NCBI GenBank assembly: GCA_963835065.1
Contig: CAWIEK010000039.1
Span: 1-64,000, forward strand
Reading direction: 5' to 3'
Source: an uncultured Chthonomonadaceae bacterium
Lineage (GTDB): Bacteria; Armatimonadota; Chthonomonadetes; Chthonomonadales; Chthonomonadaceae
DNA length: 64,000 nucleotides
The stretch's first letter is position 1. Each line of letters begins with the position of its first letter. The translations under genes and the position numbers were made by a program. Positions 6,575 through 63,959 of the stretch are shown piece by piece. A model generated the notes under the pieces. The model made no database searches and was not told the origin of the DNA. It saw only the letters and a list, made by a program, of their open reading frames with translations.

Positions 6575-6778
6575 ATGAAAACCAAACTGAAAACCCGCAA
6601 AACCGCGGCCAAACGGTTCACCCAATCCGGCACAGGCAAACTGATGCGCGGCAAAACCGGCCTCAACCACCTGATGCGCAAAAAAGACGGCCCCCGCCGC
6701 CGTACCCTGCTCGCCGACGGCGAACTGTACAAAGGCGACAAAAAGCGCATTTCCCGCATGTTGGGAGAAGGAATTTAG
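6575..6778 (+). CDS. rpmI: 50S ribosomal protein L35
   Basis: MKTKLKTRKTAAKRF..GTGKL..NHL; lies between infC and rplT. Confidence 0.95.
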   Translation: MKTKLKTRKTAAKRFTQSGTGKLMRGKTGLNHLMRKKDGPRRRTLLADGELYKGDKKRISRMLGEGI

Positions 6779-6905
6779 GAGGTAGACGGTAGACGGTAGA
6801 CGGTAGACGGTAGGAAGACCTATCTGATTATAGTGTTGCGCAAACCGTAAATAGAGAAGAGGGTTTTTCTACCGTCTACCGTCTACCGTCTACCGTCTAC
6901 CTCCT
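6777..6905. repeat. heptamer-arm palindrome, (GGTAGAC)4 ... (GTCTACC)4
   Basis: Perfect 37-bp inverted arms 6777-6813 and 6869-6905 with a 55-bp spacer. Confidence 0.95.
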
Positions 6906-6926
6906 TTCTCGAAAGGAGCGTCCCCT

Positions 6927-7307
6927 ATGCCGCGCGTGAAACGTGGCACGATGACCCATAAGCGCCATAAGAAGGTGCTGGAAACCGCCAAAGGCAACTG
7001 GGGCGGCAAGCGCAATCTGTTCAAGACGGCGCACGAGCAAATGCTCAAATCGGGTAACTATGCGTACCGTGACCGCCGCAACAAAAAGCGCGAGTTCCGG
7101 GCGCTGTGGATTATCCGCATCAGCGCCGCCTGCCGCGCGCAGGGCATGCAATACTGCCGCTTTATCGAAGGCATGACCAAAGCCGGCATTGAGCTTGACC
7201 GCAAAGTGCTGGCGGAAATGGCTGTCAACGATCCCGACACGTTTACGCAGCTCGTCGCGCAGGCGACGAGCGCCCTCAAAACGGCGGGAAGCCCGGTTAC
7301 AGCGTAA
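6927..7307 (+). CDS. rplT: 50S ribosomal protein L20
   Basis: MPRVKRG...YAYRDRRNKKREFRALWIIRI...LDRKVLAEMA. Confidence 0.98.
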   Translation: MPRVKRGTMTHKRHKKVLETAKGNWGGKRNLFKTAHEQMLKSGNYAYRDRRNKKREFRALWIIRISAACRAQGMQYCRFIEGMTKAGIELDRKVLAEMAVNDPDTFTQLVAQATSALKTAGSPVTA

Positions 7308-7309
7308 TC

Positions 7310-7378
7310 GGTGTTGGGTATTGGGTGTTGGGTGTTGGGGAACTTTCCTTGTTACGCCCGATACGCGATACTTAAACT
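7310..7378. repeat. heptamer-arm element, (GGTRTTG)4 with decayed right arm
   Basis: ggtgttg ggtattg ggtgttg ggtgttg directly after the rplT stop; degenerate cccgatac gcgatac downstream. Confidence 0.75.
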
Positions 7379-7398
7379 TTGGCGATTGTTATAATTCA

Positions 7399-7451
7399 AA
7401 CGCCCTTTACTTGCTCTCCCGCAACCGTTGCCTGAGCAAGTGAAGGGCGTT
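7399..7451 (+). other. 18-bp-stem hairpin in the pheS leader
   Basis: aacgccctttacttgctc / gagcaagtgaagggcgtt, just after an extended -10-like TGTTATAAT (7387-7395). Confidence 0.6.
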
Positions 7452-7466
7452 CTGACGTTTGGATAA

Positions 7467-7557
7467 TCGGTGTTCGGTATTCGGTGTTCGGTGTTCGGCA
7501 GACCCTTGTTCAACAGAGGCATTGCCCAAATACCAAATACCGAATACCGAACACCGA
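7467..7557. repeat. heptamer-arm palindrome, (CGGTRTT)4 ... (AAYACCR)4
   Basis: Arms 7467-7500 and 7523-7557, ending just before the pheS RBS. Confidence 0.9.
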
Positions 7558-7572
7558 CAGAGGAATAAGGTT

Positions 7573-8589
7573 GTGACAGATACCATTCCTACACAGAACA
7601 GCGACACATTCGGCAGCGTGGAAACGTTGGCGCAGGAAGCGCGGGACGCTTTGCGGCAGGCCACGACAACGCTGGAACTGAGCGCGATTGAAACGCGCTA
7701 TCTGGGACGCAAGGGCAGCCTGAACGAACTGCGCAAGGCCATCGGCGGCCTGCCCAAAGAAGAGCGTCCCGCGTTTGGAGCCAAAATCAACGAAGCGGTG
7801 GAAGCTCTGACGGTTCTGCTGGACGCGCGGCGCGCTGAATTGGCGGAACAGGAACTTCAAATTCGGCTTCAAAAAGAAACCATTGATGTCACGTTGCCCG
7901 GACGCCGGGGCGCGCAAGGCAGGCTGCATCCCCTCACGCAAACCGCAGGCCGCATCAAGCAAGCCCTGACAGGCATGGGCTTTGAGTTCGTGGACGGGCC
8001 GGAACTGGAAGATTACCGGTACAACTTTGCCGCGCTCAACTACCCCGAAGACCATCCGGCGATGGATGAGCAAAACTCGTTCTTCGTTACGGACTCGCGC
8101 CTGCTGCGAACCCAAACGACGGCCTTGCAGGGACGCATCATGGCGGAGCGCCGCCCGCCGTTTCGTATCGCCACATTGGGACGCTGCTTCCGCTATGAGG
8201 CGGTAGACGCCACGCATCACCACACGTTTCATCAGATAGACGTGTTCATGGTGGACGAGAAAATCTCAATGGCGGATTTGAAAGGCACGCTCGGCTCGTT
8301 CGCCCGCCAGATGTTCGGGCCGCAAACGCTGGTGCGCTTCCGTCCCGACTTTTTCCCCTTCGTGGAACCGGGGGTGGATTACTCGATTTCGTGGCGCAAC
8401 CGCTGGCTGGAACTCGGCGGCGCGGGCTTAATCCATCCCAACATCCTCCGCGCGCACGGCATCAATACGGAAAAGTACAGCGGCTTCGCGTTCGGCCTGG
8501 GCGTCGAGCGCGTCCACATGATCCAAACCGGCGTAGACGACCTGCGCCTGTATCTGGAGAATGATCTGCGATTTTTGAGACAGTTTTGA
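7573..8589 (+). CDS. pheS: phenylalanyl-tRNA synthetase alpha subunit
   Basis: GRLHPL, YNFAALNYPEDHPA, LLRTQT, FRPDFFPFVEP, GFAFGLGVER; GTG start after RBS. Confidence 0.97.
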   Translation: MTDTIPTQNSDTFGSVETLAQEARDALRQATTTLELSAIETRYLGRKGSLNELRKAIGGLPKEERPAFGAKINEAVEALTVLLDARRAELAEQELQIRLQKETIDVTLPGRRGAQGRLHPLTQTAGRIKQALTGMGFEFVDGPELEDYRYNFAALNYPEDHPAMDEQNSFFVTDSRLLRTQTTALQGRIMAERRPPFRIATLGRCFRYEAVDATHHHTFHQIDVFMVDEKISMADLKGTLGSFARQMFGPQTLVRFRPDFFPFVEPGVDYSISWRNRWLELGGAGLIHPNILRAHGINTEKYSGFAFGLGVERVHMIQTGVDDLRLYLENDLRFLRQF

Positions 8590-8591
8590 GG

Positions 8592-8717
8592 AAGTAGTCA
8601 GTAGTCAGTAGTCAGTAGTCAGTAGAAATGCCTGTTTAATCACGGCTTTGCGCTACAGGAATAGCTTACGAGAGAAGGTTTTTCTACTGATTACTGACTA
8701 CTGACTACTGACTACTT
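8592..8717. repeat. heptamer-arm palindrome, (GTAGTCA)4 ... (TGACTAC)4
   Basis: 37-bp arms 8592-8628 and 8681-8717 with one G-T mismatch; fills the pheS-pheT gap. Confidence 0.95.
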
Positions 8718-8728
8718 GAGGTTCTCCC

Positions 8729-10838
8729 ATGCGTATCCCCTTACAATGGCTGCAACAGTATGTGAACGTACAGGCGACGCCGCAGGAAGTCGGCGTGAAG
8801 CTGACGATGGGCGGGCTGGAAGTGGAAGGCATCGAAGAAGTCGGCAACGGGGCCGGTTCTGGATGTGTATGTCACGCCGAACCGGGGCGATTGCCTGTCG
8901 CTGCTTGGCGTGGCGCGGGAAGTGGCCGCGCTGTACGGCCTGCCGCTTGCGCCGCCCGTTCCGCCCAAATCGGAAAACGGCGGCGAGGTGGCGGGGCAAA
9001 CGTCCGTTACGATTGAAGACGCGGATTTGTGCCCCCGTTATGCGGCGCGGATTGTACGCGGCATCAAGATTGGGCCGTCGCCGGCATGGATGCAGGCGCG
9101 ATTGGAAGCGGCGGGGCAGCGTCCTATTAATAATGTGGTGGACGTGACCAATTACGTGATGCTGGAATTAGGGCAGCCGCTCCACGCCTTCGATTTGCAC
9201 AAGCTGGCGGGCGAACGGATTGTGGTTCGGCGGGCGCGGGACGGGGAAACCATTACAACGCTTGACGGCGAAGCGCGAATTCTTTCCAATGCGACGCTTG
9301 TGATTGCCGACGCGGAAAAGCCGGTTGCGGTTGCGGGCGTAATGGGCGGCGCGGACTCGGAAGTGGACGAGAACAGCGTGGATATTCTGATCGAATCCGC
9401 GCATTTCGACCCGCTTTCCATTCGGCGCGCGTCCCGTCTGCTGAAACTGCGCACGGAAGCCTCCTACCGTTTCGAGCGCGTCGTAGATATTGACGGCGTA
9501 CAACGCGCCGCAGACCGCGCCTGCGAACTGCTGATGGAAATGGGGCAAACGGGCGTTGTGCCCGGTATTGTGGATGTGTACCCGGAGCCGCGCCCCGTTC
9601 GCCATCTAAATCTGCGCGTGGCGCGGGCAGTGGAACTGCTCGGCATGGACATTACGACCGACGCGGCGACGGACTGCCTGACGCGGCTTGGTTTTACGAT
9701 TGGGCCGCGCATGGACAGCGACACGCTCAATGTGCAGGTTCCCTCGTTCCGCCCGGATATTACGCTGGAAGAGGATTTGATTGAGGAAGTGGGGCGTATC
9801 TACGGGTACGAGAACATTCCCGAAACCCTGCCGCGCGGCTTTACCACGCAGGGCGGAGACAGCCCGGACGGCTTGCTTATTGACCGCATCAAGCACATTC
9901 TGGCGTCTGCGGGCTTGCAGGAAGTGGTGACGCACAGCCTGACCGCGCCCGCGTTTTTCGACTCGCCCGATGACGCGCAACGCCGGGTATCGGTGCGCAA
10001 CGCATTGTCGGCGGAAGTGGGTGGCCTGCGGCGTTCCCTCCTGCCCACGCTGCTGGATGTGGCGCGGCACAACGCCGCCTTTCAGCAGGCTAACATGGCG
10101 CTGTTCGAGGTTGGGCGCGTGTGGCAGATGCAGCCGGTTCCCGCCGAAGACGGCGGTTCCGGGGAGCCGATTCCAACGGAGTACATCGCGGTGGGCGGTT
10201 TGCTCGTGGGTTCGCTGGAACCGGGCGACTGGCACAACAAAGGCAAGGGAACAAGCGCGGACTTTTATACGGCGCGCGGCATTGTGGAACGCCTGACCGC
10301 TGATTTAGGGCTGGATTCCATTTCCTTCACGCCGCTTGGCGACAAAGCCAACGCCCTGCCCTTACTGCATCCGGGACGCAGCGCCATGATTGCGCGTAAC
10401 GAAAGTCAGGTTATCGGGATTGTGGGCGAAATCCATCCCCGCGTTGCGCAGACATTGGATTTGCGCGATCACATTTACGTGTTTGAACTCAGTTACGAGG
10501 CGCTGAAGCAGGAGGGAAACGCTCCCACATCGGCCTACCATGCCCTGCCGCGCTTCCCGGCTGTTACCCGCGACCTGGCTCCGCGTTTGGCCGCCGATGT
10601 TCCGTACAAGCAGGTGGAAGCGGCCATCGCCGCCCTGACACTGCCCCTGCTCGAATCCGCGCGCCTGACGGACGTGTTTACCGGTGCGCCCGTGCCGGAA
10701 GGCCAAAAGAGCCTGACCCTGTCCTTCACCTTTCGCGCCCCGGATCGAACGCTCAACGACGCCGAAGTTACCGCCGCCCTGCTGCAACTGCGCCACGCTC
10801 TGGAAACGCAGTGCCATGCAGCCTTCGCAGGAGCCTGA
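8729..10838 (+). CDS. pheT: phenylalanyl-tRNA synthetase beta subunit, short form, +1 frameshift in GGGG 8849-8852
   Basis: [12 protein letters not shown] joins [51 protein letters not shown] and the C-terminal FDX-ACB domain. Confidence 0.95.
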
Positions 10839-10841
10839 TTC

Positions 10842-14262
<3,421 letters not shown>

Positions 14263-14273
14263 ATAAAATACTA

Positions 14274-14944
14274 TCAACCGCTGCATGACCGTAGGGCAAT
14301 GGTACGAAATTCCCAACCTGCTGCGCAACGGCGTCCTTGCCGATTTGCTGCAAGAGCGCCCGCAACTGCAAACCCTGGTGCTGCACAACATTGATACATT
14401 GGGCGCGAACGTGGACGCGGGTTTGTTGGGCGCATTCATGCAGCAAAACGCCACGCTTGCGGTTGAAGTGATGCCGCGCCGATTGGAAGACCGGGGCGGC
14501 GGGCTGGCGCGGGTAGACGGCAAATTGCGGCTCGTGGAAGGCTTGGCGATGCCCCGCGAGGAAGCCGAATTCGCCCTGTCCTACTACAACTCCCTGACAA
14601 GCTGGATTGACATTGACGGCCTGCTGGCTACGTTCGGCCTGACCCGTGAAACCCTGCGCGACGAAGCCACAGTAACGGCGGGAATACGCGCCCTCGCGTC
14701 CCGTATGCCTACCTATGTCACGCTGAAAGATGTAAAAAAGCGGTGGGGGCATGGGCACGAGGACGTGTTCCCGGTCACGCAATTTGAAAAGCTGTGGGGC
14801 GACATGACCGCCCTGCCCGACCTGCAAACGCGCTTCCTCGCCGTTTCGCGTCTGCGCGGGCAGCAGTTAAAAGAGCAGGCGCAACTCGACGGCTGGCTCC
14901 GTGACGGCAGCGCTTCCCACATCGAGTCCCTCTGTTACTGGTGA
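14274..14944 (+). pseudogene. tandem diverged copy of the 3' ~670 bp of the preceding gene (open 219-aa frame)
   Basis: Near-identical to 13592-14259, with mostly third-position differences. Confidence 0.8.
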
Positions 14945-15080: not shown

Positions 15081-15524
15081 ATGAACGCCTACTCGCGCTT
15101 GAAACACATTCTCCGGCAACAGCAATTGTCTATCCCGGAACTGCATCGCCGCCTTCGGAATCATGGGTTTCAGGTCAAAGTCAAAAGTCTTTACCGCCTC
15201 AACGACGACAATCAGCCGGTGGAACGTCTGGATATCCGCGTTGCAGGCGCAATCTGCCAGGTTTGTACTGTTCCCCTTTCTGAATGGATCATTTTCGAGG
15301 AAGAAATTACGCGGCTTCATACGCTGGCAGAAAACAAGCAAACTCGGTTGGATACGTTGATGGACAAAAACAATGAAGGTCAGTTGACGGAAACAGAGCG
15401 AACGGAACTACAGTTGTTAGTACGCGAAGCCGAAGAAATTATGCTTGCTAATGCGCGCCTGCTTGTCGCGCAACGCAATCAATTGGCTTCCTCGCAACTG
15501 AAAGCCGTTGGCAATGCCACGTAA
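15081..15524 (+). CDS. HTH-containing putative antitoxin/regulator
   Basis: Cro/C1-like N-terminus (LSIPELHRRL..KSLYRL..ICQVCTVPLSEWI); helical C-terminus LDTLMDKNNEGQLTETERTEL; overlaps the HNH gene. Confidence 0.65.
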   Translation: MNAYSRLKHILRQQQLSIPELHRRLRNHGFQVKVKSLYRLNDDNQPVERLDIRVAGAICQVCTVPLSEWIIFEEEITRLHTLAENKQTRLDTLMDKNNEGQLTETERTELQLLVREAEEIMLANARLLVAQRNQLASSQLKAVGNAT

Positions 15525-15927
15525 ATCGCTGCGCGCCCGAATAGAGGAACGCGCTCAGGAACGCTGCGAGTATTGCCATGCGCCTCAAATGCTTTGTGGC
15601 TATCGCTTTCATCTGGAACACATTATTCCCATTGCCGCAGGAGGTTCCGACGAAGATGCAAACCGCGCCCTCGCCTGTGCCACTTGTAATCTCACAAAAT
15701 CGGACCATCTTGTTTATCAAGATACCTTGACAGGAGAGGAAACGCCGCTGTTTCACCCGCGCCTTCATGTTTGGACTGACCATTTTGCCTGGGAAGAAAA
15801 TCAGCAAACACTGGTCGGGCGAACGGCCATTGGGCGCGTCACTGTGACGGCACTGAATATGAATAGTGACTTACAACGGTCTGCAAGGCTGGTGTGGTTC
15901 GCCATTGGCTGGCTGCCTAAAACGTAG
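15514..15927 (+). CDS. HNH endonuclease
   Basis: RCEYC..HLEHIIP..GGSD..NRALACATCNLTK, LFHPR..W..HF. Confidence 0.9.
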   Translation: MPRKSLRARIEERAQERCEYCHAPQMLCGYRFHLEHIIPIAAGGSDEDANRALACATCNLTKSDHLVYQDTLTGEETPLFHPRLHVWTDHFAWEENQQTLVGRTAIGRVTVTALNMNSDLQRSARLVWFAIGWLPKT

Positions 15928-17649: not shown

Positions 17650-19471
17650 ATGACAATTCCTGTTCACTCCAAACTCTGCGTCTCTGTTTTTGGAGAAGGC
17701 GATTTAACCCTGAATGGTAAATCCCTGATTGCGAGTTCAAGGTCTGCCAAATGGCTGTTGACGTACCTTGTTCTGCGCCACGATCAAACCATCCCCTATG
17801 AGGAGATGGAACATGATCTTTGGGGAAAGCCCGCACAACGGGGATGTGGATAGCGCAATAGCGATGTCTCCGCAGCTCTGCCGGGCTTCTTTCCAGAGGG
17901 AGAGATCGCAAAATGGAGCGGGCTGGATTTGAGCGGGAAAGAGACCGAACCGCAGCGTGTCGCAGCGTGTCGCTGTAAAGGGTTATACGCCGAAGAACTC
18001 CGTCAGGGAACGGCTGTGGAAAAGCCGAATTGCGTTCGTCTGCGTCTCATCACGCGGGACGGCAAGGAAATGATTCGTTTGTGCAATCCAACGAAAAGTT
18101 CTTTGTGCTTGCACTTGTCACCGGAAGCCGACGTTGACCTCTGGGATTTTGACGCCAACTATAATTCTGAAGATCGTGCTGTGTTGATGCGACTGGAATC
18201 ATTGTGCCGCCCTGATACTTTGCTGCAAGGTTGTGAGACAAAATGGGCTGAACAACAACGTGAAATTTACCGCGCAAAGTATGAGTCGTTAAGGAAGCGA
18301 TTGTTTGAAGTCGGCTCTGCTCCGCCGTCTTTGCTTGAAGAACCCGGATCGAATTCGACATCTGCACAAACAGTGGCTTCAGAACCTCTTGAGTCGAATT
18401 TTACGTCGCTTCTACCCACAGTGAAATTAGGCAGTGTGCCTCCTCTTCCTCCGTTGATATTGGGGCGTGAAGACGCCCTGCTTGAACTCAAACAACGCTT
18501 GCTGGTCAGGAAAAAAGACGCCTCGACGTCCACGTTGCCGGAAATAACGCAAACGCTGACCGTTATGCGCGGATGGCCTGGTGTCGGAAAAACCACGCTG
18601 TCGAAGGCTCTGGCGCATGACGCTGACATTCATGCGGCTTTCCCGGACGGCATTTTATGGACTTCGCTTGGTACGGAGCCAAACCTGCTCTTCCTGCTTA
18701 CAGCCTGGGGAAACCAATTACAGTCTGATGCGCTTCGCCATTGCGCAGATGTCAAGGACGCATCTGAGGCGTTAAATCACCATTTTGTGGAACAAGCGAA
18801 TGCTCCTCATTGTGGATGATGTTTGGCAGCAGGAACACGCGCAGGCGTTTTTGGTTGGCGGCATTGGCTGCGCCATTCTGTTCACCACCCGTGAAAGCCA
18901 CATTGCCCGCCAACTTGCCCCGCGTGCCGAGGACGTTTATGTTCTCCCCGAACTGAGTGATGAAGCCGCCCTACAGCTCCTTCAGATTTTGGCTCCTATC
19001 GTTGTATCCCGGAACATAGATGCCTGTCGCGAACTTTGCCGCGCGTTAGAAGGCTTGCCACTGGCGCTGCAAGTCGCAGGCCGCCTGCTGAACGAGGAAG
19101 AAGATTTGGGATTTGATGTGGCGACTCTACTTGCCACCTTGCGTGAAGGCGCAAGGATGCTGGAAGCGACCGTGCCGGCAGACCGCGCCGATTTTCGCCT
19201 CGGAACCACGCCGACAGTAGCTGCTCTGCTCAAGAAAAGCACGGATAGACTGGATGCGCAGACCCGTGAATACTTTGCCGCTTTGGGGCCGTTTGCTCCC
19301 AAACCAGCCACCTTTGATCTTCCCGCGCTAAAATTTGTATGGGAGATAAATGACCCCCAACCTGTTATCAGAACCCTTGTCGGACGCGGACTGCTGGAGG
19401 CTTTGGGAGAAGGGCGGTTTCAGATGCATGCCCTGTTAGTTGCACATGCAAACTCTCTGCTGAAGGAGTAA
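17650..19471 (+). CDS. SARP-like wHTH/BTAD plus NB-ARC (STAND) ATPase, several frameshifts
   Basis: KWLLTYLVLRH..LWG; Walker A GWPGVGKTT; Walker B LLIVDDVW; ILFTTR; GLPLAL; FQMHALL. Confidence 0.8.
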
Positions 19472-19477
19472 CCGTCT

Positions 19478-20674
19478 ATGCTGACGCGCCATGAAGCCTA
19501 TTTGCGCCATGTGCGCTATTATCTAAGCCTGGCTGAGGAAGCCGAACTGCATCTGACCGGCGCTGATCAGAACCTATGGCTGGAAACGCTGGAAACTGCC
19601 TATGAGAACCTGTGTGCTGCGCTGCGGTGGTCATTGAACAATCAGACCGACATTGGCCTTCGTCTCAGCAGCGCGTTATGGCGATTCTGGGAGATCCGAG
19701 GTTATTCCAGTGAAGGTCGCCAGTTTTTAATGCAGGCACTGGAATCAGTTGATCCGCAAGTATACTGCCCACAGCGAATGAGAGCGCTGACCGGAGCAGG
19801 GAATCTAGCATTTAGTCAAAATGATTATGCGGCAGCGCACACCTTGCATGAACAGAGTCTCACGCTTGCCCGCCGACATGGAAGTAAGCTGGATGTGGGA
19901 ACCTCGTTGACCAATTTAGGCTTGGTCGCCTGGCATCAGGGAAACTACATCCGCGCCCAAACATTGTTTGAAGAAGGGCTTAAAATAGATCGTAAATTCA
20001 AAAACCGTGTAGGAGAATGCAAATCTCTGCTCAACCTGGGGCTTCTTGCTGTTGAGCAAAGCAATTATTCCACAGGCCGTGTTTACTACAAGAAAGCGTT
20101 GATATTGAGCCGTAAACTAGGCGACTTGCAAAGTACGGCGCGCATCCTGAACGGGTTAGGAAATATATACATTGGCGAAGGCGATCAGGAGGGAGACACA
20201 GAAAGAAAACAACAGTTGTATGCAGATGCAGAGACCAAGTATCAGGGAGTTTGAAATCAAGCGCAGGTTGAAAAATGAAGCAGGCATTGCTACCTCGTTG
20301 CTGAATCTGGCGATTGTGGCATGTCGCTGCCACGACTATGAGCAGGCCAGAACGTACCTCGCAGAAATTTAACGTCACGGCAAAATTTAGGGGATAAACG
20401 GGGCATTGCGGAGGCGCTCGAAGAATTCGCCGGATTGGCCGCCGCGCTGCATCAGGGGGAGCGGGCGGCCTGTCTGTTCGGAGCCGCCGAGGTTCTGCGC
20501 GAGAAAACTGGTTCTCCTATTTCACCGGACGACCTTGCGGAGTACGACAAAAGCGTTGCTCTGTCGCGTGAAGCATTGGGCAACGAAGCGTTCGCAGCCA
20601 CCTGGAACACAGGCCGCTCTATGGCGCTGAATGAGGCCATAAAGTACGCATTAACCACGGAGACTGAAAGATAA
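19478..20674 (+). CDS. TPR-repeat protein (STAND sensor-like), frameshifts near 20250 and 20365
   Basis: LWRFWEIRGYSSEGR, repeated SLxNLGxxA TPRs, ERAACLFGAAEVLRE C-terminus; own AAGGAG RBS. Confidence 0.8.
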
Positions 20675-21116: not shown

Positions 21117-21169
21117 GGCATAAGATATAAGATATAAGATACACACCGAACACCGAATACCGAACACCC
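21117..21169. repeat. chimeric heptamer element (GATATAA)n + (CCGAAYA)3 upstream of tkt
   Basis: Two non-complementary unit types abutting. Confidence 0.8.
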
Positions 21170-21191: not shown

Positions 21192-23283
21192 ATGACGACT
21201 ATGGAACGACCGGCGGAACTGCCCGCCACGACGCAGGCGACCGAACAGCTTTGCATCAATACCATTCGCACCCTGTCTATGGACGCCGTGCAGCAGGCCA
21301 ATTCCGGCCATCCCGGAACCGCGATGGCGATGGCCCCGGTCATGTACGAACTGTGGCAGAAGCACCTGCGCTTTGACCCCGAAGACCCCATCTGGCCCAA
21401 CCGCGACCGCTTTATCCTGTCCATCGGCCACGCTTCCATGCTGCTGTACTCCCTGCTGCACCTGACGGAAGTGAAATCCGTCAACGCCAAGTACGAGCAA
21501 GTTGGGACGCCCTCCGTCTCGCTCGACGACATTAAGCGGTTCCGGCAGTTGGACAGCAAATGTCCGGGACACCCGGAGTACCGCTGGACTTCGGGCGTGG
21601 AATCCACGACCGGCCCGCTCGGACAGGGCGTGGCGACAAGCGTGGGCATGGCGATTGCGGGGCAGTGGATGGCCGAACAATTCAACAAGCCAGACTACAC
21701 GATGTTCGATTACAACGTGTACGCGCTGTGCGGCGACGGCTGTATGCAGGAAGGCATTTCGGGCGAAGCGGCATCCCTGGCGGGGCATCTCAAACTGCCC
21801 AACCTGTGCTGGATTTACGACAACAACCACATCAGCATCGAAGGCAACACGTCCCTGTCGTTCAGCGAGGACGTGGGAACCCGGTTTCAGGGCTACGGCT
21901 GGAACGTCGTCCGCGTCAGTGACGCCAACAACCTGGAGCGACTGGATGCGGCGCTGACCACGTTCAAGGCCACGCAGGACCGGCCCACGCTGATTATCGT
22001 GGACAGCCACATCGCGTATGGCTCCCCCAACAAGCAGGACACGAGCGCGGCGCACGGCGAACCGTTGGGCGATGAAGAGATTCGGCTGACCAAAAAGAAT
22101 TATGGCTGGCCGGAAGACGCCAAGTTTTTGGTTCCTGACGAAGTGCGGGCGGAATTCAAAGCGGGCATCGGGGCGCGGGGCAAGCAATTGCGCGACGGCT
22201 GGATGGCGAAGTTCGACCAGTACAGCGCGGCCTATCCCGAACTGGCCGACGAACTGTACAAAATGCAGCACCGCGAATTGCCCACCGACTGGAACAAGGA
22301 TTTGCCGACGTTCCCTGCCGATCCCGAAAGGCGTGGCGGGACGCGACAGTTCCAGCAAAGTCCTGAACGCGCTGGCAAAAAACGTGCCCTGGCTGATTGG
22401 CGGCTCCGCCGACCTTGCCCCGTCCACCAAAACCCGCCTGACATTCGACGGCGCGGGCGACTTTTCCGCTACCGAACGGAGCGGGCGCAACATGCACTTC
22501 GGCATCCGCGAACACGCGATGGGCGCAATTTTGAACGGCATGTCGCTGTGCAAAGTCCGTCCGTATGGCTCCGGCTTTTTGATTTTCAGCGATTACGCCC
22601 GCCCCGCCATTCGTCTGAGCGCCCTCATGGAACTGCCGACCATCCACATCTTCACGCACGATTCGATTGGCGTGGGCGAGGACGGCCCGACCCATCAGCC
22701 GATTGAGCAACTCGCCAGCCTGCGTTCCGTTCCCGGCCTGATTACCCTGCGCCCCGGTGACGCCAATGAGGTTGTCGAGTCGTGGAAGGTGATTATGCAA
22801 TTACGGCATCAGCCAACCGTACTGGTGCTGAGTCGGCAGGCGTGTCCCACATTGGACAGAACCGTATACGCGGCGGCGGACGGCGTGGCAAAGGGCGCGT
22901 ACATCCTTGCCGATACCAACCCCGGCGAATTGCCCGACGTGCTGCTGATGGCAAGCGGCAGCGAAGTGGGACTGGCGGTAGCGGCCTTCGAGCAGTTGAA
23001 AGCGGAGGGTGTGAAAGCCCGCGTCGTCAGTATGCCCTCGTGGGAATTGTTCGAGGATCAGGAAGACAGCTACCGCGAGGCCGTGCTGCCGCCAAGTGTG
23101 AGCGCGCGCATTTCCATTGAGCAGGCCGGCACGTTCGGTTGGGAGCGCTATGTCGGGCGGGGCGGCAAGGCCATCGGCATGAAATCTTTCGGCGCGTCCG
23201 CCCCGTTGAAGGAACTGCAAAAGAAGTTCGGCTTCACCGTCGAGCAAGTCGTGCAGACTGCCAAAGACCTGCTTGCCAAGTAG
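21192..23283 (+). CDS. tkt: transketolase, +1 frameshift near 22324
   Basis: ANSGHPG, NRDRFILS.GH, TTGPLGQG, GDGCMQEG, HFGIREHAMG, THDSIGVGEDGPTHQP. Confidence 0.96.
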
Positions 23284-24287: not shown

Positions 24288-24319
24288 ATTCGCGTGTATT
24301 TGCGTTTATTCGCGGCTAA
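24288..24319 (-). repeat. decamer repeat TTAGCCGCGAAT(RAACGCRAAT)n
   Basis: Follows the oxidoreductase stop; inverted copy at 26660-26681. Confidence 0.7.
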
Positions 24320-25016: not shown

Positions 25017-25121
25017 TTCACCACCAAGACGCCAAGAACACCAAGAAGAACGAGAACGTTCCGGTTCTGCGCCTTTTTAGTTGCCTGTTTTTCTTGGTGT
25101 TCTTGGCGTCTTGGTGGTGAA
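25017..25121. repeat. perfect 31-bp inverted repeat built of CCAAGA-containing 8-9-mers
   Basis: ttcaccaccaagacgccaagaacaccaagaa / ttcttggtgttcttggcgtcttggtggtgaa. Confidence 0.9.
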
Positions 25122-25328: not shown

Positions 25329-26648
<1,320 letters not shown>

Positions 26649-26732: not shown

Positions 26733-27339
<607 letters not shown>

Positions 27340-27347: not shown

Positions 27348-28416
27348 GCCGGAAACGACGGGGCGGAATTCGTTGCGGGCGCAGACGCGCCGACAGCAGA
27401 AGCAGATGCGGCGGATGCGCGGACTGCTGTTTGCGCTGATACTGGTGGTGGTGAGTATCGGGGGCGGGTGGATGTGGATGGTTTCGCCGCCTTCCGAAAG
27501 CCATACGTCTATTACCGTCATAATTCCTCGCGGCTCAAATCGGATGGCGATTGGCGGGCTGCTGGCGGAGCAGGGGCTGATCCGCAGTCCCTATGCGTTT
27601 GTGTTGAAGACGCGCCTGGCGAACGCGGAAATCAAGGCGGGGAAATATCGCCTGACGCCCGCTATGAGTCTGGAGGAAGTCGTACAAGCCCTGCGGCGCG
27701 GCCCGATGGCAAACGCGGAAGGCATCAGCGTCACCATCCCGGAAGGCTATACGCTGGCACAAATCGCGCAGGCGTTGCAGGCAAAGGGCGTCACGGACGG
27801 CGCGGAACTGCTGCGCCTCGCAACCGACAAAACATTTGTTGCCGGACTGCATGAAGCGTTTCCCCTGCCGACGCAAACGCTGGAAGGGTATTTGTTTCCC
27901 GATACCTATGTGTTCAAGCCGCACTCATCCCCTCGTGACGTTCTGGAAGAAATGCTGCGCAATTTTGGACGCCGCTTTGCCGATAGTCAGGCGCAGGAAA
28001 TCGCGGCGAGCGGGCACAGTCTGCATGAACTGGTGACAATTGCCTCCTTAATCGAGCGCGAAGCCGAAGTTCCGCAGGATCGCGCCCGCATTGCCGGGGT
28101 CATCAACAACCGATTGGGGCGTAAAATGCGCCTGCAAATTGACGCTACCGTACTTTATGCGCTCGGACACCATAAAAATCGCGTTTTGTACAAGGATTTA
28201 AACGTCAAGTCGCCGTATAATACATACCGTCACGCCGGCCTGCCACCCGGCCCGATTGCCTGCCCCGGCCTGCCCTGCCTGATGGCCGCGCTGCATCCCG
28301 AAACCAACGATTTTCTCTACTATGTCGCCCGCCCGGACGGTTCGCACCTGTTCACGCGCACCCTCCGCGAACACGAAGCCGCCAAACGGCAGGCGCGGCA
28401 GGAACGGGGGCGGTAG
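27340..28416 (+). CDS. mltG: endolytic transglycosylase MltG
   Basis: VTIPEG, LEGYLFPDTY, ASLIEREA, LQIDATV, SPYNTY..GLPPGPI. Confidence 0.95.
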
Positions 28417-28555
28417 GTGTTCAGGTATTCGGGTGTTCAGGTGTTCAGGTGTTCAGGTATTCGGACTTCATTAGCGTGTTGTCATCGTTGAATTAAGACT
28501 GATAGGCGCTCAAAGTTGCTTCCTGAACACCGAACACCTGAACACCTGAACACCT
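28415..28555. repeat. octamer-arm palindrome (RGGTRTTC)6 ... (GAACACCT)4
   Basis: Arms 28415-28465 and 28521-28555; starts inside the mltG TAG. Confidence 0.9.
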
Positions 28556-37733: not shown

Positions 37734-37740
37734 GAAAGGA

Positions 37741-41177: not shown

Positions 41178-41302
41178 GGTATTCAGGTATTCAGGTGTTC
41201 GGGTGTTCAGGAAATGCAAAAGCAAAGATGTTGTTTTCGCGCAACAAGTTCGCAGCCTAACACCTGAATACTTGAATACCCGAACACCTGAACACCTGAA
41301 TA
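41177..41302. repeat. octamer-arm palindrome (RGGTRTTC)4 ... (GAAYACYY)4-5
   Basis: Begins in the TAG of the prepilin gene; arms 41177-41211 and 41256-41302. Confidence 0.9.
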
Positions 41303-41404: not shown

Positions 41405-41437
41405 CCGAACACCTGAATACCTGAACACCTGAACACC
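41405..41437. repeat. octamer arm (GAAYACCT)4 with decayed left partner
   Basis: ccgaacacctgaatacctgaacacctgaacacc. Confidence 0.8.
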
Positions 41438-43717: not shown

Positions 43718-46030
43718 ATGACAGCAACGAAGCCAACCATATATAGGGAACAGGGAACAGGGAACAGGGAACAGAAAATACCCAATACCCAACGCTCAAC
43801 ACCCAACACCCGACACCACGCCTTCACCTTGATCGAACTTCTCGTCGTGATCGCGCTGACGGCGATTCTGCTGACGCTGGTGTTCGCGCCGCTTGTCACC
43901 ACGCTGAACCTGACGAGCCGGGCGGGAACACAGATCGAGGCGCAGACAAACGCGCGCGACGTAATGCGCCAACTGGAAGCGGAATTGGGCGGCCCGGTCT
44001 TTGTGTACGACAACGTGCTGCAGGGGCCGGCCAGTCAGGGCGGCAAATTGGGCGACCCGGACGGGCGCGTCAACCTGTGGATGTACAAGCGCAATGGAAC
44101 CAATCCCATTGGCGGCGCTCCCGTTGTGATTCCCATTCGGTTCGGCATGATAGAATATGTCGCGCCGGCCAGCCAGTCGGAAAACAGCGCGAATACGACG
44201 CTTGATCCCACGACAGGCAGGCCGGATGTGGGAACCGGTTCACCGGGAAACGTTTCTTTGCCTCTGGTGCGCGGACGAGAAATAGTGCGCATATTTCAGG
44301 GACTGCAAAATAACACTTCCGGGACAACAGGCTTAACGCAGGACGGGGTTACGCTGTCCGGTATGCCTGTAGACGCGAAAGGCAATTTTCACGGCTACGC
44401 CAACCGCTTCGACGACGCGGCGGATGTGACCGCTTCCCAGGACAACCGCACCACGCTGTACCGGGCCGAAGTTCAGCCCTACATTCCCGACCCGACCGCG
44501 CCTGCGAACACAACGCGCTATGTCGCCAACATCGCCCTGTTCCATACCTTCAATGCGCAGGGAACGCGGGGAACCGACCCGACCGGAACCCTGATTATGG
44601 ACGAACCCAACTTCTTCTATGACACCACCCCGATTCCTGCCGCATACGTACGATTAGGCGCTCCGGGCGTGGATATTGCCGGACGCGCGACCGTTCCCAT
44701 GTGGGAGTGCTGGAAGGCCGTGTCGCAGCCCCTGCTGCCCCTAACCAAAGGCGATGTTGTGGAATTGCAGCGTGATAACCGCAACCAAATCGTATACGAT
44801 GCCAATGATGTGCCGATTGTGCGTCCGTTGATTACGTTCACGCCGCAGTACGTGGAAAACGATCCGGGCGTCCCGGCCAGCGTGGAAGCGTCCGCTTCGG
44901 AAACTCCTTTTACCGCCGCCACAACGTACCGTTCGCAGTATGGCGCGTGGGCGCGTCCGTTCCGCGTGATCGTGTACCGCTCGCCGGACGGAATTCAGGA
45001 CCCGCTTGGCTATCAGGACGCGGGCGGCAAACCGCTTTATTATGAAATGGATGACGTGAGTACGGGCATCGGCTTTCAGGGGCCGAGCGCGAATCTGGCG
45101 TCCAGCGTCGGGCCGCAGCTCAACCCGGATGGCTCGTGGAAAACGAATACGACGCCGCAGTTCGCCTTTACGCCGGATTATGACAAGGGCACGATTAATT
45201 TCGCGTTCCCGCACACCGTCTATGATCGCCTGAGCGACGGTTCGCCCGTGCCGATGTACTACAATCCGAATACCATCAACAGCCAGATAGACATTCTGGC
45301 GAACGGCGAACCCCTTACCGGACGTCGTTACCTGTGGCTGCGCTACTTCGACCCAACGGCGCAAATCGGCGGCACGGCAGCCAACCCGACAACGGCCATA
45401 TCGCCGCTCGACAAATTCTATGTGGCGCTGGATGATCCGCCGCAAACACCGGCCAAAAATCAGCCCAAAGTACGCATCGTGCCGGGCAGTGAGCGCGTGT
45501 TCGGGCCGGATCAGCTTCCGGGAGCGCACTACGGCTACCGAACGCAGTACACCCGCGTGTCGGCCAATGCCGGTCAGATCGGGCAAAACCAGTACAAAAT
45601 CCTGTACGAGAACGCCGCCAACTCGAACTATGTCAACGACATCAACGACCCGCGCGTACAAACCGGCTATATCGAATTCGACAGCCTGCCCGACAAAGAC
45701 CCCGGCGCATTGCCCAACATCGGTTCCGTAAACCTGGATGCAACGGTGGAAAACCCGTCGCAGGCGGCAGGCAGTCTGCCCGTATATCGCCCGCACAGCC
45801 TGCCCCTGCTGAAGTACGTTGCGGCAACCGGCCAGACCGTGCCCGCCGACCCGATTGAAGTGTCGTACAGCTTCCAGATGAACCGTCCAAGCGACGTGGT
45901 GAAAATAGACTACCTGACGCGCAGCATCATGAACGTCAACATGGAAATGCGCCTGTACGATCCGCGCTCCGCCCGCCCGCAAACCACGCAATTGACCAGC
46001 AAGGTTTCGGTACGGAACCTTCAGCGCTGA
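43718..46030 (+). CDS. giant PilW-like minor prepilin (770 aa)
   Basis: HA-FTLIELLVVIALTAILL..Q.NAR..M..L..EL; C-terminus LTSKVSVRN. Confidence 0.85.
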   Translation: MTATKPTIYREQGTGNREQKIPNTQRSTPNTRHHAFTLIELLVVIALTAILLTLVFAPLVTTLNLTSRAGTQIEAQTNARDVMRQLEAELGGPVFVYDNVLQGPASQGGKLGDPDGRVNLWMYKRNGTNPIGGAPVVIPIRFGMIEYVAPASQSENSANTTLDPTTGRPDVGTGSPGNVSLPLVRGREIVRIFQGLQNNTSGTTGLTQDGVTLSGMPVDAKGNFHGYANRFDDAADVTASQDNRTTLYRAEVQPYIPDPTAPANTTRYVANIALFHTFNAQGTRGTDPTGTLIMDEPNFFYDTTPIPAAYVRLGAPGVDIAGRATVPMWECWKAVSQPLLPLTKGDVVELQRDNRNQIVYDANDVPIVRPLITFTPQYVENDPGVPASVEASASETPFTAATTYRSQYGAWARPFRVIVYRSPDGIQDPLGYQDAGGKPLYYEMDDVSTGIGFQGPSANLASSVGPQLNPDGSWKTNTTPQFAFTPDYDKGTINFAFPHTVYDRLSDGSPVPMYYNPNTINSQIDILANGEPLTGRRYLWLRYFDPTAQIGGTAANPTTAISPLDKFYVALDDPPQTPAKNQPKVRIVPGSERVFGPDQLPGAHYGYRTQYTRVSANAGQIGQNQYKILYENAANSNYVNDINDPRVQTGYIEFDSLPDKDPGALPNIGSVNLDATVENPSQAAGSLPVYRPHSLPLLKYVAATGQTVPADPIEVSYSFQMNRPSDVVKIDYLTRSIMNVNMEMRLYDPRSARPQTTQLTSKVSVRNLQR
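43745..43817 (+). repeat. chimeric heptamer cassette (AGGGAAC)4 + (CCCAACA-like)5 in a prepilin leader
   Basis: Encodes REQGTGNREQKIPNTQRSTPNTRH before A-FTLIE. Confidence 0.9.
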
Positions 46031-46047: not shown

Positions 46048-46174
46048 AAGGCATTAGGCATTAGATATTAGGCATTAGGGACTAGGAACACTCCTCAAAT
46101 CCTGCTTCCCACAGTCAATGCAAACATCAACGAGCGCATTTCCCTAATGCCTAATGCCTAATATCTAATGCCTT
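46048..46174. repeat. heptamer-arm palindrome (GGCATTA)4 ... (TAATGCC)4
   Basis: Arms 46048-46081 and 46141-46174, each with one GATATTA/TAATATC variant. Confidence 0.95.
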
Positions 46175-49438: not shown

Positions 49439-49523
49439 AGGCATCAGGCATCAGGTATTAGGCATATAGGAAACGCTGTACACGATAAGTCTTAACTGAC
49501 CTAATACCTAATACCTGATACCT
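49439..49523. repeat. heptamer-arm palindrome (AGGYATY)4 ... (CCTRATA)3
   Basis: Directly after the TAG at 49436. Confidence 0.85.
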
Positions 49524-49547
49524 ATTTATGAAGTGGACACACGAAAC

Positions 49548-54773: not shown

Positions 54774-54919
54774 AGGCATTAGGCATTAGGCATTAGGCAT
54801 TAGGAGGAGAGCAAAGCGCAGCTTGATTGGGTCGGCTGCACTGTGAAAACAGGGTTGACACGCGCAAGACGCGCTTCATTGCTTCCCTCCTAATGCCTAA
54901 TGCCTAATGCCTAATGCCT
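54774..54919. repeat. heptamer-arm palindrome (AGGCATT)4 ... (AATGCCT)4
   Basis: Perfect 34-bp arms 54774-54807 and 54886-54919. Confidence 0.95.
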
Positions 54920-60900: not shown

Positions 60901-63832
60901 GCGCCCCAACGACAGCACGGGAACCATCGCCAGCATCCCGGATAAGCCGTATGACTTCGACTACCAGGCGAACACGCTGAATCAGCCTGCAAATCCAAAC
61001 GGCCCGTCGTACATTCAGCAGCAGCAGCTAATCGGGTTGTTTGGCCGTCCGTCTGTGGGAATGGCAATACCCATCGGTACGCCGGTGGGAACCTACAGCG
61101 CGCCCATCTTCCCGTATGAGGATGGCCTGCCGATACAATGGGTGGAATGGCTGAACAGTTCCACGTTAAGCTCGGTCGCCAAACCCGCCAACATCCTGGG
61201 CAACAACGACGACATTCTGAACACCACGCAGGCCGGCGCGCTGGCGGAACCCTACGCCAATCCCTCGCCAATCGTGAAAGTGTCGGTTCGGGAGTCCCGC
61301 CTGACCGAAGGCGCGACAAACGGCTCCATGCCGCAGATTGACGTGCGCAATAACAACGGCGGCTACGATCCCATCGGCTTCAACATGCAGCCCTCCGCGA
61401 TCATGGTTCCGCAGGCCGGAACCGCCACGAATGTCTATAACAAGATATTCCTGTACTGGGCGACCAACCGGCAATTCAACCCGGCGGGCAACAACGGCAA
61501 GTACAACGTGTCCGGGCTGCCCACGCCGTTCGCGCCGTACAATCTCGCGTACTCCTCGCTCATCACGCCGTATGCCTACCTGAACGGCTACTATCGGGGC
61601 GACGCGGACTTCGGCTACTACAAGGGCAACAACGCGCTGTTCCCGGACAACGTGCGAATGCCGCAATGGTGGAGCGCGGGCTATCCCAAGAACTCGCCGT
61701 TCGCGCTGTTGCCGGGCTTCGATATGAACGGCGACCCGCTGGATTACACCAAGCTGTTTCCGCAGCAGACGGGTTCCAGCAATGTCGTCAGCCCGCCGTC
61801 TGTCCGGTACGGCAGCCCCGCCACCACGCTGGCTACGCTGTACAACGAGGCCACCGGCAACTTCGAGATTGACCCGGAAGCCTACCTGACCGCGCAGGGC
61901 ATTGCGGACAAGACTTCGGGCACGGATGCGTCGGGCCGCGCGCTTCCGCAGCAGACGGAAACCCGCACGTTTGTCGCGTCGCTGGCGAATCGCTCGGGCA
62001 ATTCGGAACCGGGAGCGCCGGACTATACCAATAGCACAACCGATACGTGGTTCAAATCGTTTATCAACGATCCCACGCTGCCCAAACTCAGCCCGCGCCC
62101 GCTGCTGGTCAAACTGCGCAGCGCGCCTGTCAACGGCAGTACGCAGGACCTCAAGTTCCTGTACGTGTTCTGGTTTACCGGCGCGCAGAACCGCACAAGC
62201 CTGTACTACAACGTGAACGTGCAGGCGGGTGGCCTGAATCAGAAGTTCGATGACAAGGGCTTCCAGGTTCTGGGCGACCAGAAACTGTCCACGCCCGGCG
62301 CGCTGACATGGCAGAGTGATCCGTACCCGGTCTTCCGCCGCGCTTACGACCCGACATTAGGCCAGGTTGTGGATGCGGTAGACGTGATGTTTACGGGACA
62401 ATTGAAGAACCGGCAAGTGTCGGAAGTGATGCTGGCCCGCTACCGCATCGTGGAGCAGGCGGTTCCGGCTGGCACGAGTACGCCCGCGCTTGCGGTCGGC
62501 CAACTGGTTGCGATGCCGTTCCCGACGGTGCATCAGGAAACCCTGACGCCCGTGCCCGGAACCAACACGTATGCGGCGCGGGACGCGGCCTGGTTCCTGC
62601 CCAACGATCAGCAGACGGCGGATACGGCAGCTAACCGCTACATGCGTATCTACCTTTCGCAGAAGGGAACCAGCCAACTCTACCTGATTAACAGCCAGGC
62701 GTATATCAACGGCGGAACCAATGTCGCCAATGGAACGCAGCGCGGGCGCATTGACCCGGCTTCCGGCCTGGTCTACTTCAACGCGGTCGCTGTGGATACG
62801 GGCACAAACAAAATCGCCATGAACGGCACTCGCCCGGTCTATGGCGGCGGGCAGATCGTGGTGGATGCGCGGTCTGGTACGGTTTCGTTCCCGAACATCC
62901 CGCCCGGCAAAACGGATCGGCTGTATGCGTCTTACACGCCTTATCTGCTGCGGGTCAACACGTCCCGCGACGAAAGCAATGTGGAGCGCGACAGCACAGA
63001 TATTTCGGGCAATCCCAATCCGTATGGCGGTTTCAACCTGGCCGCCTTCCCGGCGCACCCGGCAGTGTCATCCAGCGGGCAGAACTACTCGCCGACGTTC
63101 ATCATGGATCGCGCCGCCAACTTCCGGGGTACGCTCCAGTCGCCGCAGGTGCTGTTCGGCGTCAACAATCAGCCCGCGACCTCGTTCAACAACCAGGGCG
63201 CGCTTGTTGGAGGCTCACTGCCGCCCGTAGCTCGCATGTGGGCGTTCTACCGCAAGACCGACGCGGCGGGAAGCATCAAGGGAACCGTGTTCTTGAAATC
63301 GCTGCGGCTGACGGCGCGTTTGCCCCTGCCCGTCGCAACGATTGCCACTGTAGGTACGGCAACTGCGCCGATTGCCTCGCAACGCATCCAGTCCATAACC
63401 GTTACCGGCGTAGATAGGCCATTGACGCGGGGGTATGAGGTGGATTGGGTACGCGGGCGCGTGTACTTCCAGGAGGAGGATGAGGGCAATCTCGTCAAGA
63501 TCAACTATCAGTACTACAATCCGAGAAATGGGCAGTCCGCCAATTCCGGCGACCTGTACTACCGGGTAGCGTGGAGCGACGAGATCAGCGCGGCGGGCGT
63601 CACCAATGGCGATCAAACAACGCCGGAAGTGGCAATGCCGACCTCCTCGGTTGTCAACGAAGGCCAGATTGCCGCGTTCAAAGACCCGTACATTGACAAA
63701 GTGTGGCTGTTCTGGAGCAGCACCCGCGCGGGAACCACCATCGGCGCCAACAACAATCCGCTCGGCGAAACCGACCTGTACTACGAAACGCTCGCGCCGC
63801 AGTTCTACCCGTCGGCGAGTAATCAGTATTAG
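54942..63832 (+). CDS. giant secreted protein (~2960 aa) with carbohydrate-binding-like domain and PQQ-like propeller (frameshifts near 56183, 58445)
   Basis: Signal peptide ..SARA-Q; FASPV, GRIYALDA, DGRLYTFDA, GDGHVYG, GDTNGQLRAY; three ORFs overlap with 1-nt shifts and show no obvious internal RBS or signal peptide. Confidence 0.7.
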
Positions 63833-63834
63833 GA

Positions 63835-63959
63835 AGTAGTCAGTAGCCAGTAGACAGTAGTCAGTAGAAATGCCTCACTACTCGAAGCTGTGCAGAACAA
63901 GAACAGCTTGCAAGAAACGGGCATTTCTACTGACTACTGACTACTGGCTACTGACTACT
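63835..63959. repeat. heptamer-arm palindrome (AGTAGNC)4 ... (GRCTACT)4
   Basis: 40-bp arms 63835-63874 and 63920-63959 with one mismatch, 2 nt after the TAG. Confidence 0.95.

Follow-up and report, generated by a model that had tools for sequence, protein, structure and literature searches.

Heptamer-armed palindromes of a Chthonomonadaceae genome share their arms with PF05635 genes and may be gene-less, mutually replacing mobile elements

Tandem heptamer repeats are known from cyanobacteria as short tandemly repeated repetitive (STRR) sequences. Here we describe a family of palindromes, each made of an arm of tandem 7- or 8-mers, a spacer and an inverted arm, in a stretch of 64,000 nucleotides (the window) from an uncultured Chthonomonadaceae bacterium of the phylum Armatimonadota (GenBank assembly GCA_963835065.1, contig CAWIEK010000039.1, positions 1 to 64,000), and their relation to genes of the family PF05635 (S23p/23S-IVP, Avd fold) elsewhere in the same genome. 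Several described systems come close. The heptamers of Xanthomonas (GGGAATC) and Nostoc (GGGGA(C/T)T) prefer four units, form inverted pairs and lie G-rich past stop codons and C-rich before start codons, and a link to mobile elements was not found for them (Rehm 2015, PMC4692102). TAACTGA repeats occur before start codons, by a mechanism described as not evident (MacGregor 2015, PMC4679880). The intervening sequence (IVS) of the Coxiella 23S rRNA gene combines a stem of 28 bp and tandem heptamers with an S23p open reading frame (ORF) and is excised by RNase III, its origin being unclear according to the authors (Warrier 2016, PMC4990558). Avd forms a pentameric barrel in which all five protomers contact RNA (Handa preprint 10.1101/2023.10.23.563531).

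The genome that carries the window (8.0 Mb, 57% GC, 71 contigs) holds three PF05635 genes, on contigs C8, C25 and C33 and not on that of the window, and each of the three is enclosed by arms. The link surfaced on searching long arm pairs, where a four-helix-bundle ORF was found between arms of the unit AGTAGTC. Arms of the same kind surround the PF05635 gene, and the gene-less palindromes are copied within the genome and turn over at fixed sites. On balance we lean towards the reading that the palindromes are gene-less miniatures of a PF05635-carrying element, which are copied and replace one another, likely by means of the predicted PF05635 pentamer acting in trans.

The association extends beyond this genome. 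Most of 30 PF05635 loci sampled across Armatimonadota show arms by eye, and in a cross-phylum set (80 loci, of which two were dropped for short flanks) a flanking inverted repeat with a score of at least 30 was found at 56 of 78 homologues compared with 1 of 297 shifted control windows. Of the 54 upstream arrays, 51 have period 7 and 47 are G-rich; of the 56 downstream ones, 52 have period 7 and 46 are C-rich. In 51 of the 80 loci the neighbours on both sides are co-oriented with the PF05635 gene. As many as 88 different units occur at 97 of 114 PF05635 loci, and 82 of 86 heptamers contain AG or GG. A strict code between protein and unit was rejected, the tie being weak (Mantel rho -0.11, p 0.003) and confounded by kinship. 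In Xanthomonas, XCC0516, whose product is structure 2GSC, is overlapped at its start by a four-unit repeat of the GGGAATC type, as tabulated in Rehm 2015 (PMC4692102).

Gene and gene-less hairpins also co-occur. In a survey of 151 genomes of the phylum, 67 carry PF05635 and 36 match a narrow pattern for gene-less hairpins; at least ten matches were found in 19 of the 67 genomes with PF05635 and in none of the 84 without it (Fisher p 4e-8, overstated by kinship), and any match in 27 and 9 of them, respectively. Two congeners differ accordingly: G001 (97% complete) has no PF05635 gene and one heptamer array in the 400 kb sampled, whereas G002 has two PF05635 genes, both enclosed by arms of their own, and its 800 kb sampled contain 86 heptamer and 39 octamer arrays.

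The PF05635 protein was modelled with a pLDDT of 97, and its structural matches include 2GSC (template modelling score, TM, 0.93), 2RLD (0.88) and Avd (4DWL, 0.82). Both 2GSC and 2RLD contain five chains, and the S23p pentamer was reportedly solved in 2006. Outside the search motif, L3, W6, Y17, E27, Q34, R37, R52, S68 and E71, numbered as in the aligned C25 fragment, are conserved at 96-100%. With Avd the protein shares the fold and the predicted pentameric barrel, and it would share the five-subunit contact with nucleic acid described for Avd, but it keeps the conserved acidic or polar residues E27, Q34, R37, E71 and Y17 and has no net positive charge. The likeness is one of fold only: unlike Avd in diversity-generating retroelements, the host PF05635 genes have no linked reverse transcriptase (RT), template repeat or variable repeat, and RT genes lie on other contigs.

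The arms are strikingly regular. A periodicity scan of the whole genome returned 1,988 arrays of period 7 and 306 of period 8, compared with 5, 13, 93, 21, 2, 1 and 3 arrays of periods 4, 5, 6, 9, 10, 11 and 12; about 4.5 copies were present in 1,021 of the 1,988 period-7 arrays. The merged census comprises 2,292 arrays with units of 7-8 nt, which fall into 129 families by unit and lie at approximately 1,460 sites, hundreds of them paired as hairpins. Pairing of complementary arrays is far above chance, and the G-rich arm comes first in all 365 adjacent complementary arrays at most 100 bp apart. Most arms repeat one short motif at both termini (AG, AGG, AGTAG, GGG and others), so that a full arm consists of five cores and four linkers. 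Among 1,940 arms of the 30 largest families, five cores were counted in 1,050, four in 633, two or three in 164 and six or more in 93, arms of fewer than about three units falling under the detection limit; counts fall sharply beyond five and the distribution is not geometric. AG or GG is found within the unit of 2,125 of the 2,292 arrays and GGG within that of 518.

Elements have a median length of 118 bp genome-wide (5-95% range 76-141), with a spacer mode of 55-59 nt in matched elements. Arms diverge from their consensus by 2-6% (measured with a ceiling of three mismatches), whereas spacers have a median identity of at most about 50%. The AGTAGTC family has a diverged spacer in common (median identity 50%, compared with 31% for shuffled sequences) which lies both ways relative to transcription (24:20); in the AGGCATT and AGTTGAT families spacer likeness is not above the shuffle. 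Arm variants occupy fixed unit positions across loci, for example unit 2 in 32 of 43, which is not expected from independent slippage, and variants common to both arms are found in 131 of 285 cases in register and 170 of 694 off register. Sense-strand mismatches comprise 74 G-T and 79 A-C, and 38 T-G and 44 C-A, so that there is no G-U excess and selection for an RNA stem on the sense strand was rejected. Adenine-biased mutagenesis of the spacers was not seen. Pairing beyond the arms is slightly raised (at least 3 bp in 15% compared with 4% of controls). Six complete elements of the window fold into stems of 33-45 bp (z -7.7 to -14.9 relative to shuffles), and the composite at 25925 does not fold (z +2.5).

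Copying is evident from 219 pairs with at least 88% identity and unrelated flanks among 687 multi-arm sites, since near-identical whole elements at unrelated sites require copying between loci. Six of these pairs lie less than 10 kb apart (0.3% for random pairs), and they include a 99% pair in opposite orientation at a distance of 3.9 kb. Simple nesting was rejected as the origin of composites: a matching pair was present in 19 of 111 multi-arm sites, none of them cleanly of the form A-B-B'-A'.

Turnover was examined at orthologous junctions. Between rplT and the gene upstream, which we take from its translation to be rpmI, G002 has an element with a different unit and G001 a decayed element; between pheS and pheT, G002 carries the 8-mer AGGTAGAT and G001 a 9-mer type, and most other relatives show no element by eye at either junction. 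Over 180 orthologous junctions of the host and G002, both were occupied in 47, the host only in 25, G002 only in 10 and neither in 98 (odds ratio 18); of 30 shared junctions in the first half of the data set, 4 have the same unit in both species. Spacers of orthologous elements score 0.15-0.16, like their reverse complements (13 pairs), whereas element-free spacers score 0.48 (16 pairs), and whole elements thus seem to be replaced; 15 further sites were set aside, 12 without a matched element in G002 and three unparsed. Rewriting of arms in place around an inherited spacer was rejected on the same 13 pairs, which are at background in both orientations. Public DNA runs, checked for window positions 6000-12500, include one contig that skips the element at 6781 leaving 8 letters and another with a 143-nt replacement, these alleles being single contigs of relatives approximately 85-90% alike. 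At the few clean empty sites seen no target-site duplication is evident, in relatives too diverged for a firm answer.

The two sites where G002 has a full four-helix-bundle element were compared with the host. Opposite that at C2:440314-440628 (L206), the host (C24:82671-83578) has a small toxin-antitoxin-like cassette, by look presumably PemK/MazF-like, with a leftover C-rich arm; opposite the other (L209), the host has a 9-mer mini-element (C40:6630-6761).

The position of the elements was analysed with gene limits from our own rough gene caller (6,544 genes). Matched elements comprise 355 intergenic ones (between 302 co-directional, 34 convergent and 19 divergent gene pairs) and eight in ORFs. 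At 227 of the 302 co-directional junctions the G arm starts at most 15 nt past the upstream stop codon, and where the intergenic spacer contains more than 100 nt of other DNA the G arm still hugs the stop in 30 of 64 cases, compared with a uniform expectation of 6-20%. Of the 302 elements, 64% lie in junctions where other DNA amounts to 40 nt or less, which make up 1.5% of intergenic bases. The stop codon upstream of elements is TAG in 122 of 214 cases, compared with 1,687 of 6,544 overall, in part because the arms themselves supply the stop. Solo arms show the same polarity, with 206 G-rich and 9 C-rich after stops and 114 C-rich and 13 G-rich before starts.

Elements also interrupt rRNA genes. 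The rRNA operon on contig C51 (L210, C51:112500-121600) contains five arm elements, two in the 16S and three in the 23S gene, which lengthen these genes by approximately 160 and 300 nt relative to the Rfam models, and the mature 16S and 23S rRNA of the host is predicted to be fragmented. One 23S insert, with the unit AGTAGTC also seen at 8593 and 63835 of the window, interrupts the hairpin at positions 1205-1226 of the Rfam large subunit (LSU) model, which we take to be helix 45, the site of the Coxiella IVS. A further 23S copy lies on contig C49. The host has an RNase III gene, as do 149 of the 151 genomes of the phylum, and its presence therefore has no discriminating value.

As many as 290 sites lie inside called ORFs, many of them strings of unrelated arms. 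Their strand bias is strong (AGGGAAC 138 vs 14, AGTTGAT 46 vs 0, AAGACAG 31 vs 0), and there are hardly any in orientations that would bring in stop codons or hydrophobic peptides, a pattern resembling tolerated insertion filtered by the reading frame. In G002, 9 of 12 orthologous in-ORF sites carry arrays, and the module strings differ. Rickettsia palindromic elements are likewise repeat DNA inserted in frame into protein loops; the host inserts, however, are strings of heptamer arms, mostly non-palindromic and exchanged in the congener.

From these data we propose that the PF05635 protein is probably needed for spread. The predicted pentamer would read five phased AG/GG cores per arm while ignoring most linker letters, each subunit reading one core as in ring-shaped RNA binders; such binders, TRAP among them, read spaced triplets. 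That its five subunits set the five-core ceiling has, to our judgement, about an even chance of being right, and the chances are similarly balanced that the reaction takes place on single-stranded or extruded DNA, as for REPINs, hairpins built from repetitive extragenic palindromic (REP) sequences. We place the reaction on DNA because cores and spacers face either way and sense-strand mismatches lack a G-U excess. As non-palindromic composites are also copied, it is probably the core lattice and not the paired stem that is recognised, and a paired hairpin appears not to be required for copying. Insertions would persist at harmless places: just past stop codons, as the stem would rejoin the stop with the next ribosome-binding site; in rRNA loops, from which RNase III would likely excise them; and in protein loops, where they would be tolerated given an open frame and a hydrophilic peptide.

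Comparison with described systems places the family between several of them. Like the S23p IVS of Coxiella burnetii (helix 45) and Leptospira, it combines PF05635 with inverted heptamer arms and a stem of approximately 30 bp, but the window elements lack a PF05635 ORF and lie outside rRNA genes, although five other family members do lie within those on C51; and whereas the IVS is treated as confined to rRNA, most host sites lie between or inside protein genes and nearly all are gene-less. The four-unit preference, inverted pairs, stop and start polarity and conserved positions are shared with the Xanthomonas and Nostoc heptamers, for which one unit per genome was studied, whereas many units coexist and replace each other here. 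REPINs and their REP-associated tyrosine transposases (RAYTs) are similar: non-autonomous hairpins of two arms and a spacer are present in hundreds, the arms being conserved and the spacers diverged, and the same arms also flank a few genes (Bertels and Rainey 2011, PMC3337134). However, the host arms are tandem 7-8-mers without internal palindrome, not short imperfect palindromes such as REP, and instead of an HUH tyrosine transposase the enclosed gene encodes a four-helix bundle. Of the systems compared, REPINs are the nearest working analogy, and the family resembles them in operation without belonging to them. In contrast to miniature inverted-repeat transposable elements, there is no fixed terminal inverted repeat (129 unit families; 88 units at 97 gene loci), and the partner gene is not a known transposase.

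Other candidate mobilisers were considered in the host. Two of four PF01797 matches were inspected, and these full-length RAYT-like Y1 transposase genes (C42:76532-76870 and C51:103107-103445) have their own long inverted repeats and form a separate system; RAYT was rejected as mobiliser on account of these other flanking repeats. RT genes are located at C49:681483-682613, beside cas6/cas1-like genes, and at C50:52482-53912, retron-like and heading an operon of large unknown genes, both contexts being judged by look. The resident RTs were rejected as mobilisers, being unlinked to elements.

The features of the window are as follows, with the strand given where one applies.

6781 to 6901: complete element, unit GGTAGAC, between rpmI and rplT, beginning 2 nt past the stop codon.
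7310 to 7339, plus strand: solo G-rich arm immediately 3' of the rplT stop codon.
7467 to 7557: short complete element, unit CGGTGTT, 91 bp, 5' of pheS.
8593 to 8716: complete element, unit AGTAGTC, between pheS and pheT; this unit family also occurs in the gene-bearing element on contig C8 and in the 23S rRNA insert.
11498 to 11605, plus strand: in-frame composite of an AGGGAAC arm and an AGTGATG mini-element, within a conserved gene without a name.
21117 to 21168: chimeric pair with non-complementary arms, ahead of transketolase.
25022 to 25116: element with 9-mer arms, of the type flanking GxxExxY (PF13366) genes, a parallel family.
25881 to 26065, plus strand: non-palindromic composite of five arms, in frame in a loop of a major facilitator superfamily (MFS) transporter.
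27138 to 27325, plus strand: second, almost identical version of the five-arm composite, lying in frame at the C-terminal end of the gene after the MFS transporter, by look presumably RuvX/YqgF-like.
28415 to 28555: complete element, 8-mer unit AGGTGTTC, 3' of the YceG/MltG gene.
30577 to 30641: decayed element.
30786 to 30810, plus strand: solo C-rich arm ahead of the start codon of a type II/IV secretion ATPase.
37740 to 37863: complete element, unit AAGGGAT, at the junction of the T2SSF and prepilin peptidase genes.
40133 to 40169, plus strand: solo C-rich arm within a pilin leader, in frame.
41178 to 41302: complete element with mixed 8-mer units.
41407 to 41437, plus strand: solo C-rich arm of 8-mers.
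43745 to 43817, plus strand: chimeric G arm and C arm, in or just 5' of a pilin leader, the pilin frame being open.
46049 to 46173: complete element, unit AGGCATT, with one variant unit per arm.
49439 to 49524: short complete element, units AGGCATC/AGGTATT, 86 bp.
54774 to 54919: complete element, unit AGGCATT.
63835 to 63959: complete element, unit AGTAGTC, with the unit-2 variant of the family in each arm.

The composite at 11498 has other genomic copies at 88-94% identity, and G002 holds different modules at that place; those at 25881 and 27138 are 96% identical over 182 bp with unrelated flanks and an exchanged last arm. The spacers of the window elements measure approximately 30-85 nt and none encloses a PF05635 gene. 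Rfam gave no match in the window.

An earlier sequence-only reading of the window had listed ten complete elements and five solo, decayed or chimeric arms, and all of these are located where it placed them. Eight of the ten measure 121-146 bp, where it gave 123-146 bp for most, and those at 7467 and 49439 are shorter. The four copies per arm stand as units, to which the repeated end motif has to be added, giving five cores in 1,050 of 1,940 arms; the variety of units was borne out, with the element at 41177 also being of 8-mers, and the G-rich arm is indeed first in 365 of 365 close complementary pairs. The inventory itself was incomplete, having missed the in-frame non-palindromic composites at 11498, 25881, 27138 and 43745 and the 9-mer-armed element at 25022. 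Random slippage had been thought unlikely, in agreement with a copy number that is not geometric genome-wide, and the predicted excess of arm pairing over chance, presence/absence differences and unit swaps among relatives were all found. An enzyme encoded outside the window had been proposed to service the elements, with small helical-bundle proteins among the candidates listed, and the PF05635 genes on other contigs, three of three between arms, encode such a protein. The idea of a non-autonomous mobile element recognised by periodicity gains support from copying, turnover and the link of gene and arms, while the suggestion that elements are rewritten holds for replacement at fixed sites but not for arms alone, since whole elements seem to be exchanged.

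A sister system was also observed: three GxxExxY genes (PF13366, PD-(D/E)xK) are flanked by 9-10-mer arms at C19:8329-8673, C39:76631-76981 and C3:174084-174431, and gene-less 9-10-mer-armed elements are found in the window at 25022-25116, 35820-35858 and 24288-24314, in the same site types as the heptamer elements. A long type IV pilus/type II secretion cluster, with its genes all in one direction, lies at window positions 30836-63832; it encodes two ATPases, T2SSF, a prepilin peptidase and pilins, after which come large proteins without a Pfam match, and elements occupy many of the junctions. Frameshifts split pheT (8716-10838), the unnamed conserved gene (10842-14944) and transketolase (21192-23283); the congener alignment has a 2-nt gap at one of them, and the split genes may therefore be assembly errors. 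An HNH endonuclease gene and an NB-ARC/TPR gene lie in pieces at 15508-15927 and 18785-20254.

Several observations weigh against PF05635-driven spread of gene-less miniatures. No match to the narrow hairpin pattern was found in 40 of the 67 PF05635 genomes, and 9 of the 84 genomes without the gene have 1-8 matches, related genomes not being independent. The 633 arms with four cores, together with an AGTGATG family that is modal at four, fit a five-core ceiling less well, and approximately 7% of arrays have no AG/GG core. Around PF05635 genes of other phyla the arms are often longer or ragged. The miniatures do not look like deletion products of the three gene-bearing elements in the host, spacer likeness being found in some families only. 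The aligned part of the protein has no net positive charge, unlike Avd as described, we know of no activity for PF05635, and its gene could travel as a passenger, making use of the arms as any other cargo would. Shared occupancy at orthologous junctions may in part mean that insertion is tolerated at a restricted number of sites, the comparison with G002 covers 0.8 of approximately 7.5 Mb, and the position counts depend on the limits set by a rough gene caller.

Other explanations account for part of the same data. An Avd-like protein could load element RNA released by RNase III onto a borrowed RT, the cDNA being pasted at ribosome-free spots past stop codons and template jumps giving chimeric arm strings; the Avd fold (TM 0.82; PMC10053308), stop-codon hugging even in long spacers, the five inserts within rRNA, the presence of RNase III and the frequency of composites of unrelated arms would agree with such a retro-route. 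We consider it unlikely, since spacers lie both ways relative to transcription (24:20), the sense strand lacks a G-U excess, spacer variation is not adenine-focused and the two host RT genes do not adjoin elements. It is somewhat more doubtful still that the host keeps the palindromes as regulatory hairpins, selected as sites for RNase III or a pentameric regulator at functional positions and homogenised by slippage or gene conversion. Clean empty sites exist, unit and spacer are both exchanged at shared sites, and G001, although 97% complete, is nearly element-free in the 400 kb sampled; moreover, at the 290 in-frame sites the surviving orientations are stop-free and mostly hydrophilic. Such selection would nevertheless agree with the congeners' common occupied sites (odds ratio 18), the strict polarity of solo arms at stops (206 vs 9) and starts (114 vs 13), the in-register variants shared by both arms (131/285 vs 170/694 off register) and the 83% of repeats found at the same place in two Xanthomonas species (Rehm 2015, PMC4692102).

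Two other explanations appear very improbable. Units of the GGGAATC type form G-quadruplexes in vitro, and four G-tracts were proposed to account for four units in Xanthomonas and Nostoc (Rehm 2015, PMC4692102), but a GGG unit is present in 518 of 2,292 arrays, the large families AGTAGTC and AGTTGAT have no GG yet unchanged geometry, and the modal core count is five, not four. The quadruplex fails as a general explanation and may be a side property of G-rich units. Replication slippage with template switching, making and mirroring arrays with no dedicated protein, has comparably little chance of being correct: template switching could give rise to variants mirrored between the arms and to the slightly raised pairing beyond them, but it gives no reason for the restriction to periods 7-8, the five-core ceiling, the G-first order in 365 of 365 pairs, the fixed-position variants common to several loci or the link to one gene family, nor does it account for near-identical whole elements at unrelated sites.

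The sequence-only reading had presented its palindromes as a candidate undescribed system. The Coxiella 23S IVS (PMC4990558) and the Xanthomonas and Nostoc heptamers (PMC4692102) overlap with it, so that it is not wholly undescribed and parts are already in print. No literature joining the repeats to the PF05635 gene as a mobile element was found in a search that left subscription journals and bioRxiv supplements outside; a brief mention of IVP in a CRISPR survey has no bearing on it. Taken together, three old questions, namely the origin of rRNA IVSs, the role of the S23p pentamer and the abundance of four-unit heptamer repeats in many bacteria, become one testable system, of which this genome is an extreme case with approximately 1,460 sites and 129 unit families. 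The predictions are that the ceiling of five cores matches a ring of five subunits, that recognition is blind to linkers, that insertion takes place past stops and that whole elements are overwritten.

In its widest form, which we put forward tentatively, PF05635 proteins would be enzymes that mobilise or template a class of mobile DNA not recognised so far. Their pentameric ring would count five purine cores per arm, tolerate nearly any linker, and copy, stack and overwrite arm modules at stop codons, within rRNA and in proteins. The rRNA IVSs, the STRR, Xanthomonas and Beggiatoa heptamers and heptamer-derived peptide loops would all be its products, and GxxExxY genes would run a 9-mer sister system. 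Hydrophilic peptide strings at 290 sites, exchanged between congeners, also show how proteins can change quickly. Should the PF05635 protein prove catalytic, it would be a DNA-mobilising enzyme of approximately 120 residues with a fold for which no such role is known, and its likely part in spreading these elements would explain several long-unexplained bacterial repeat families.

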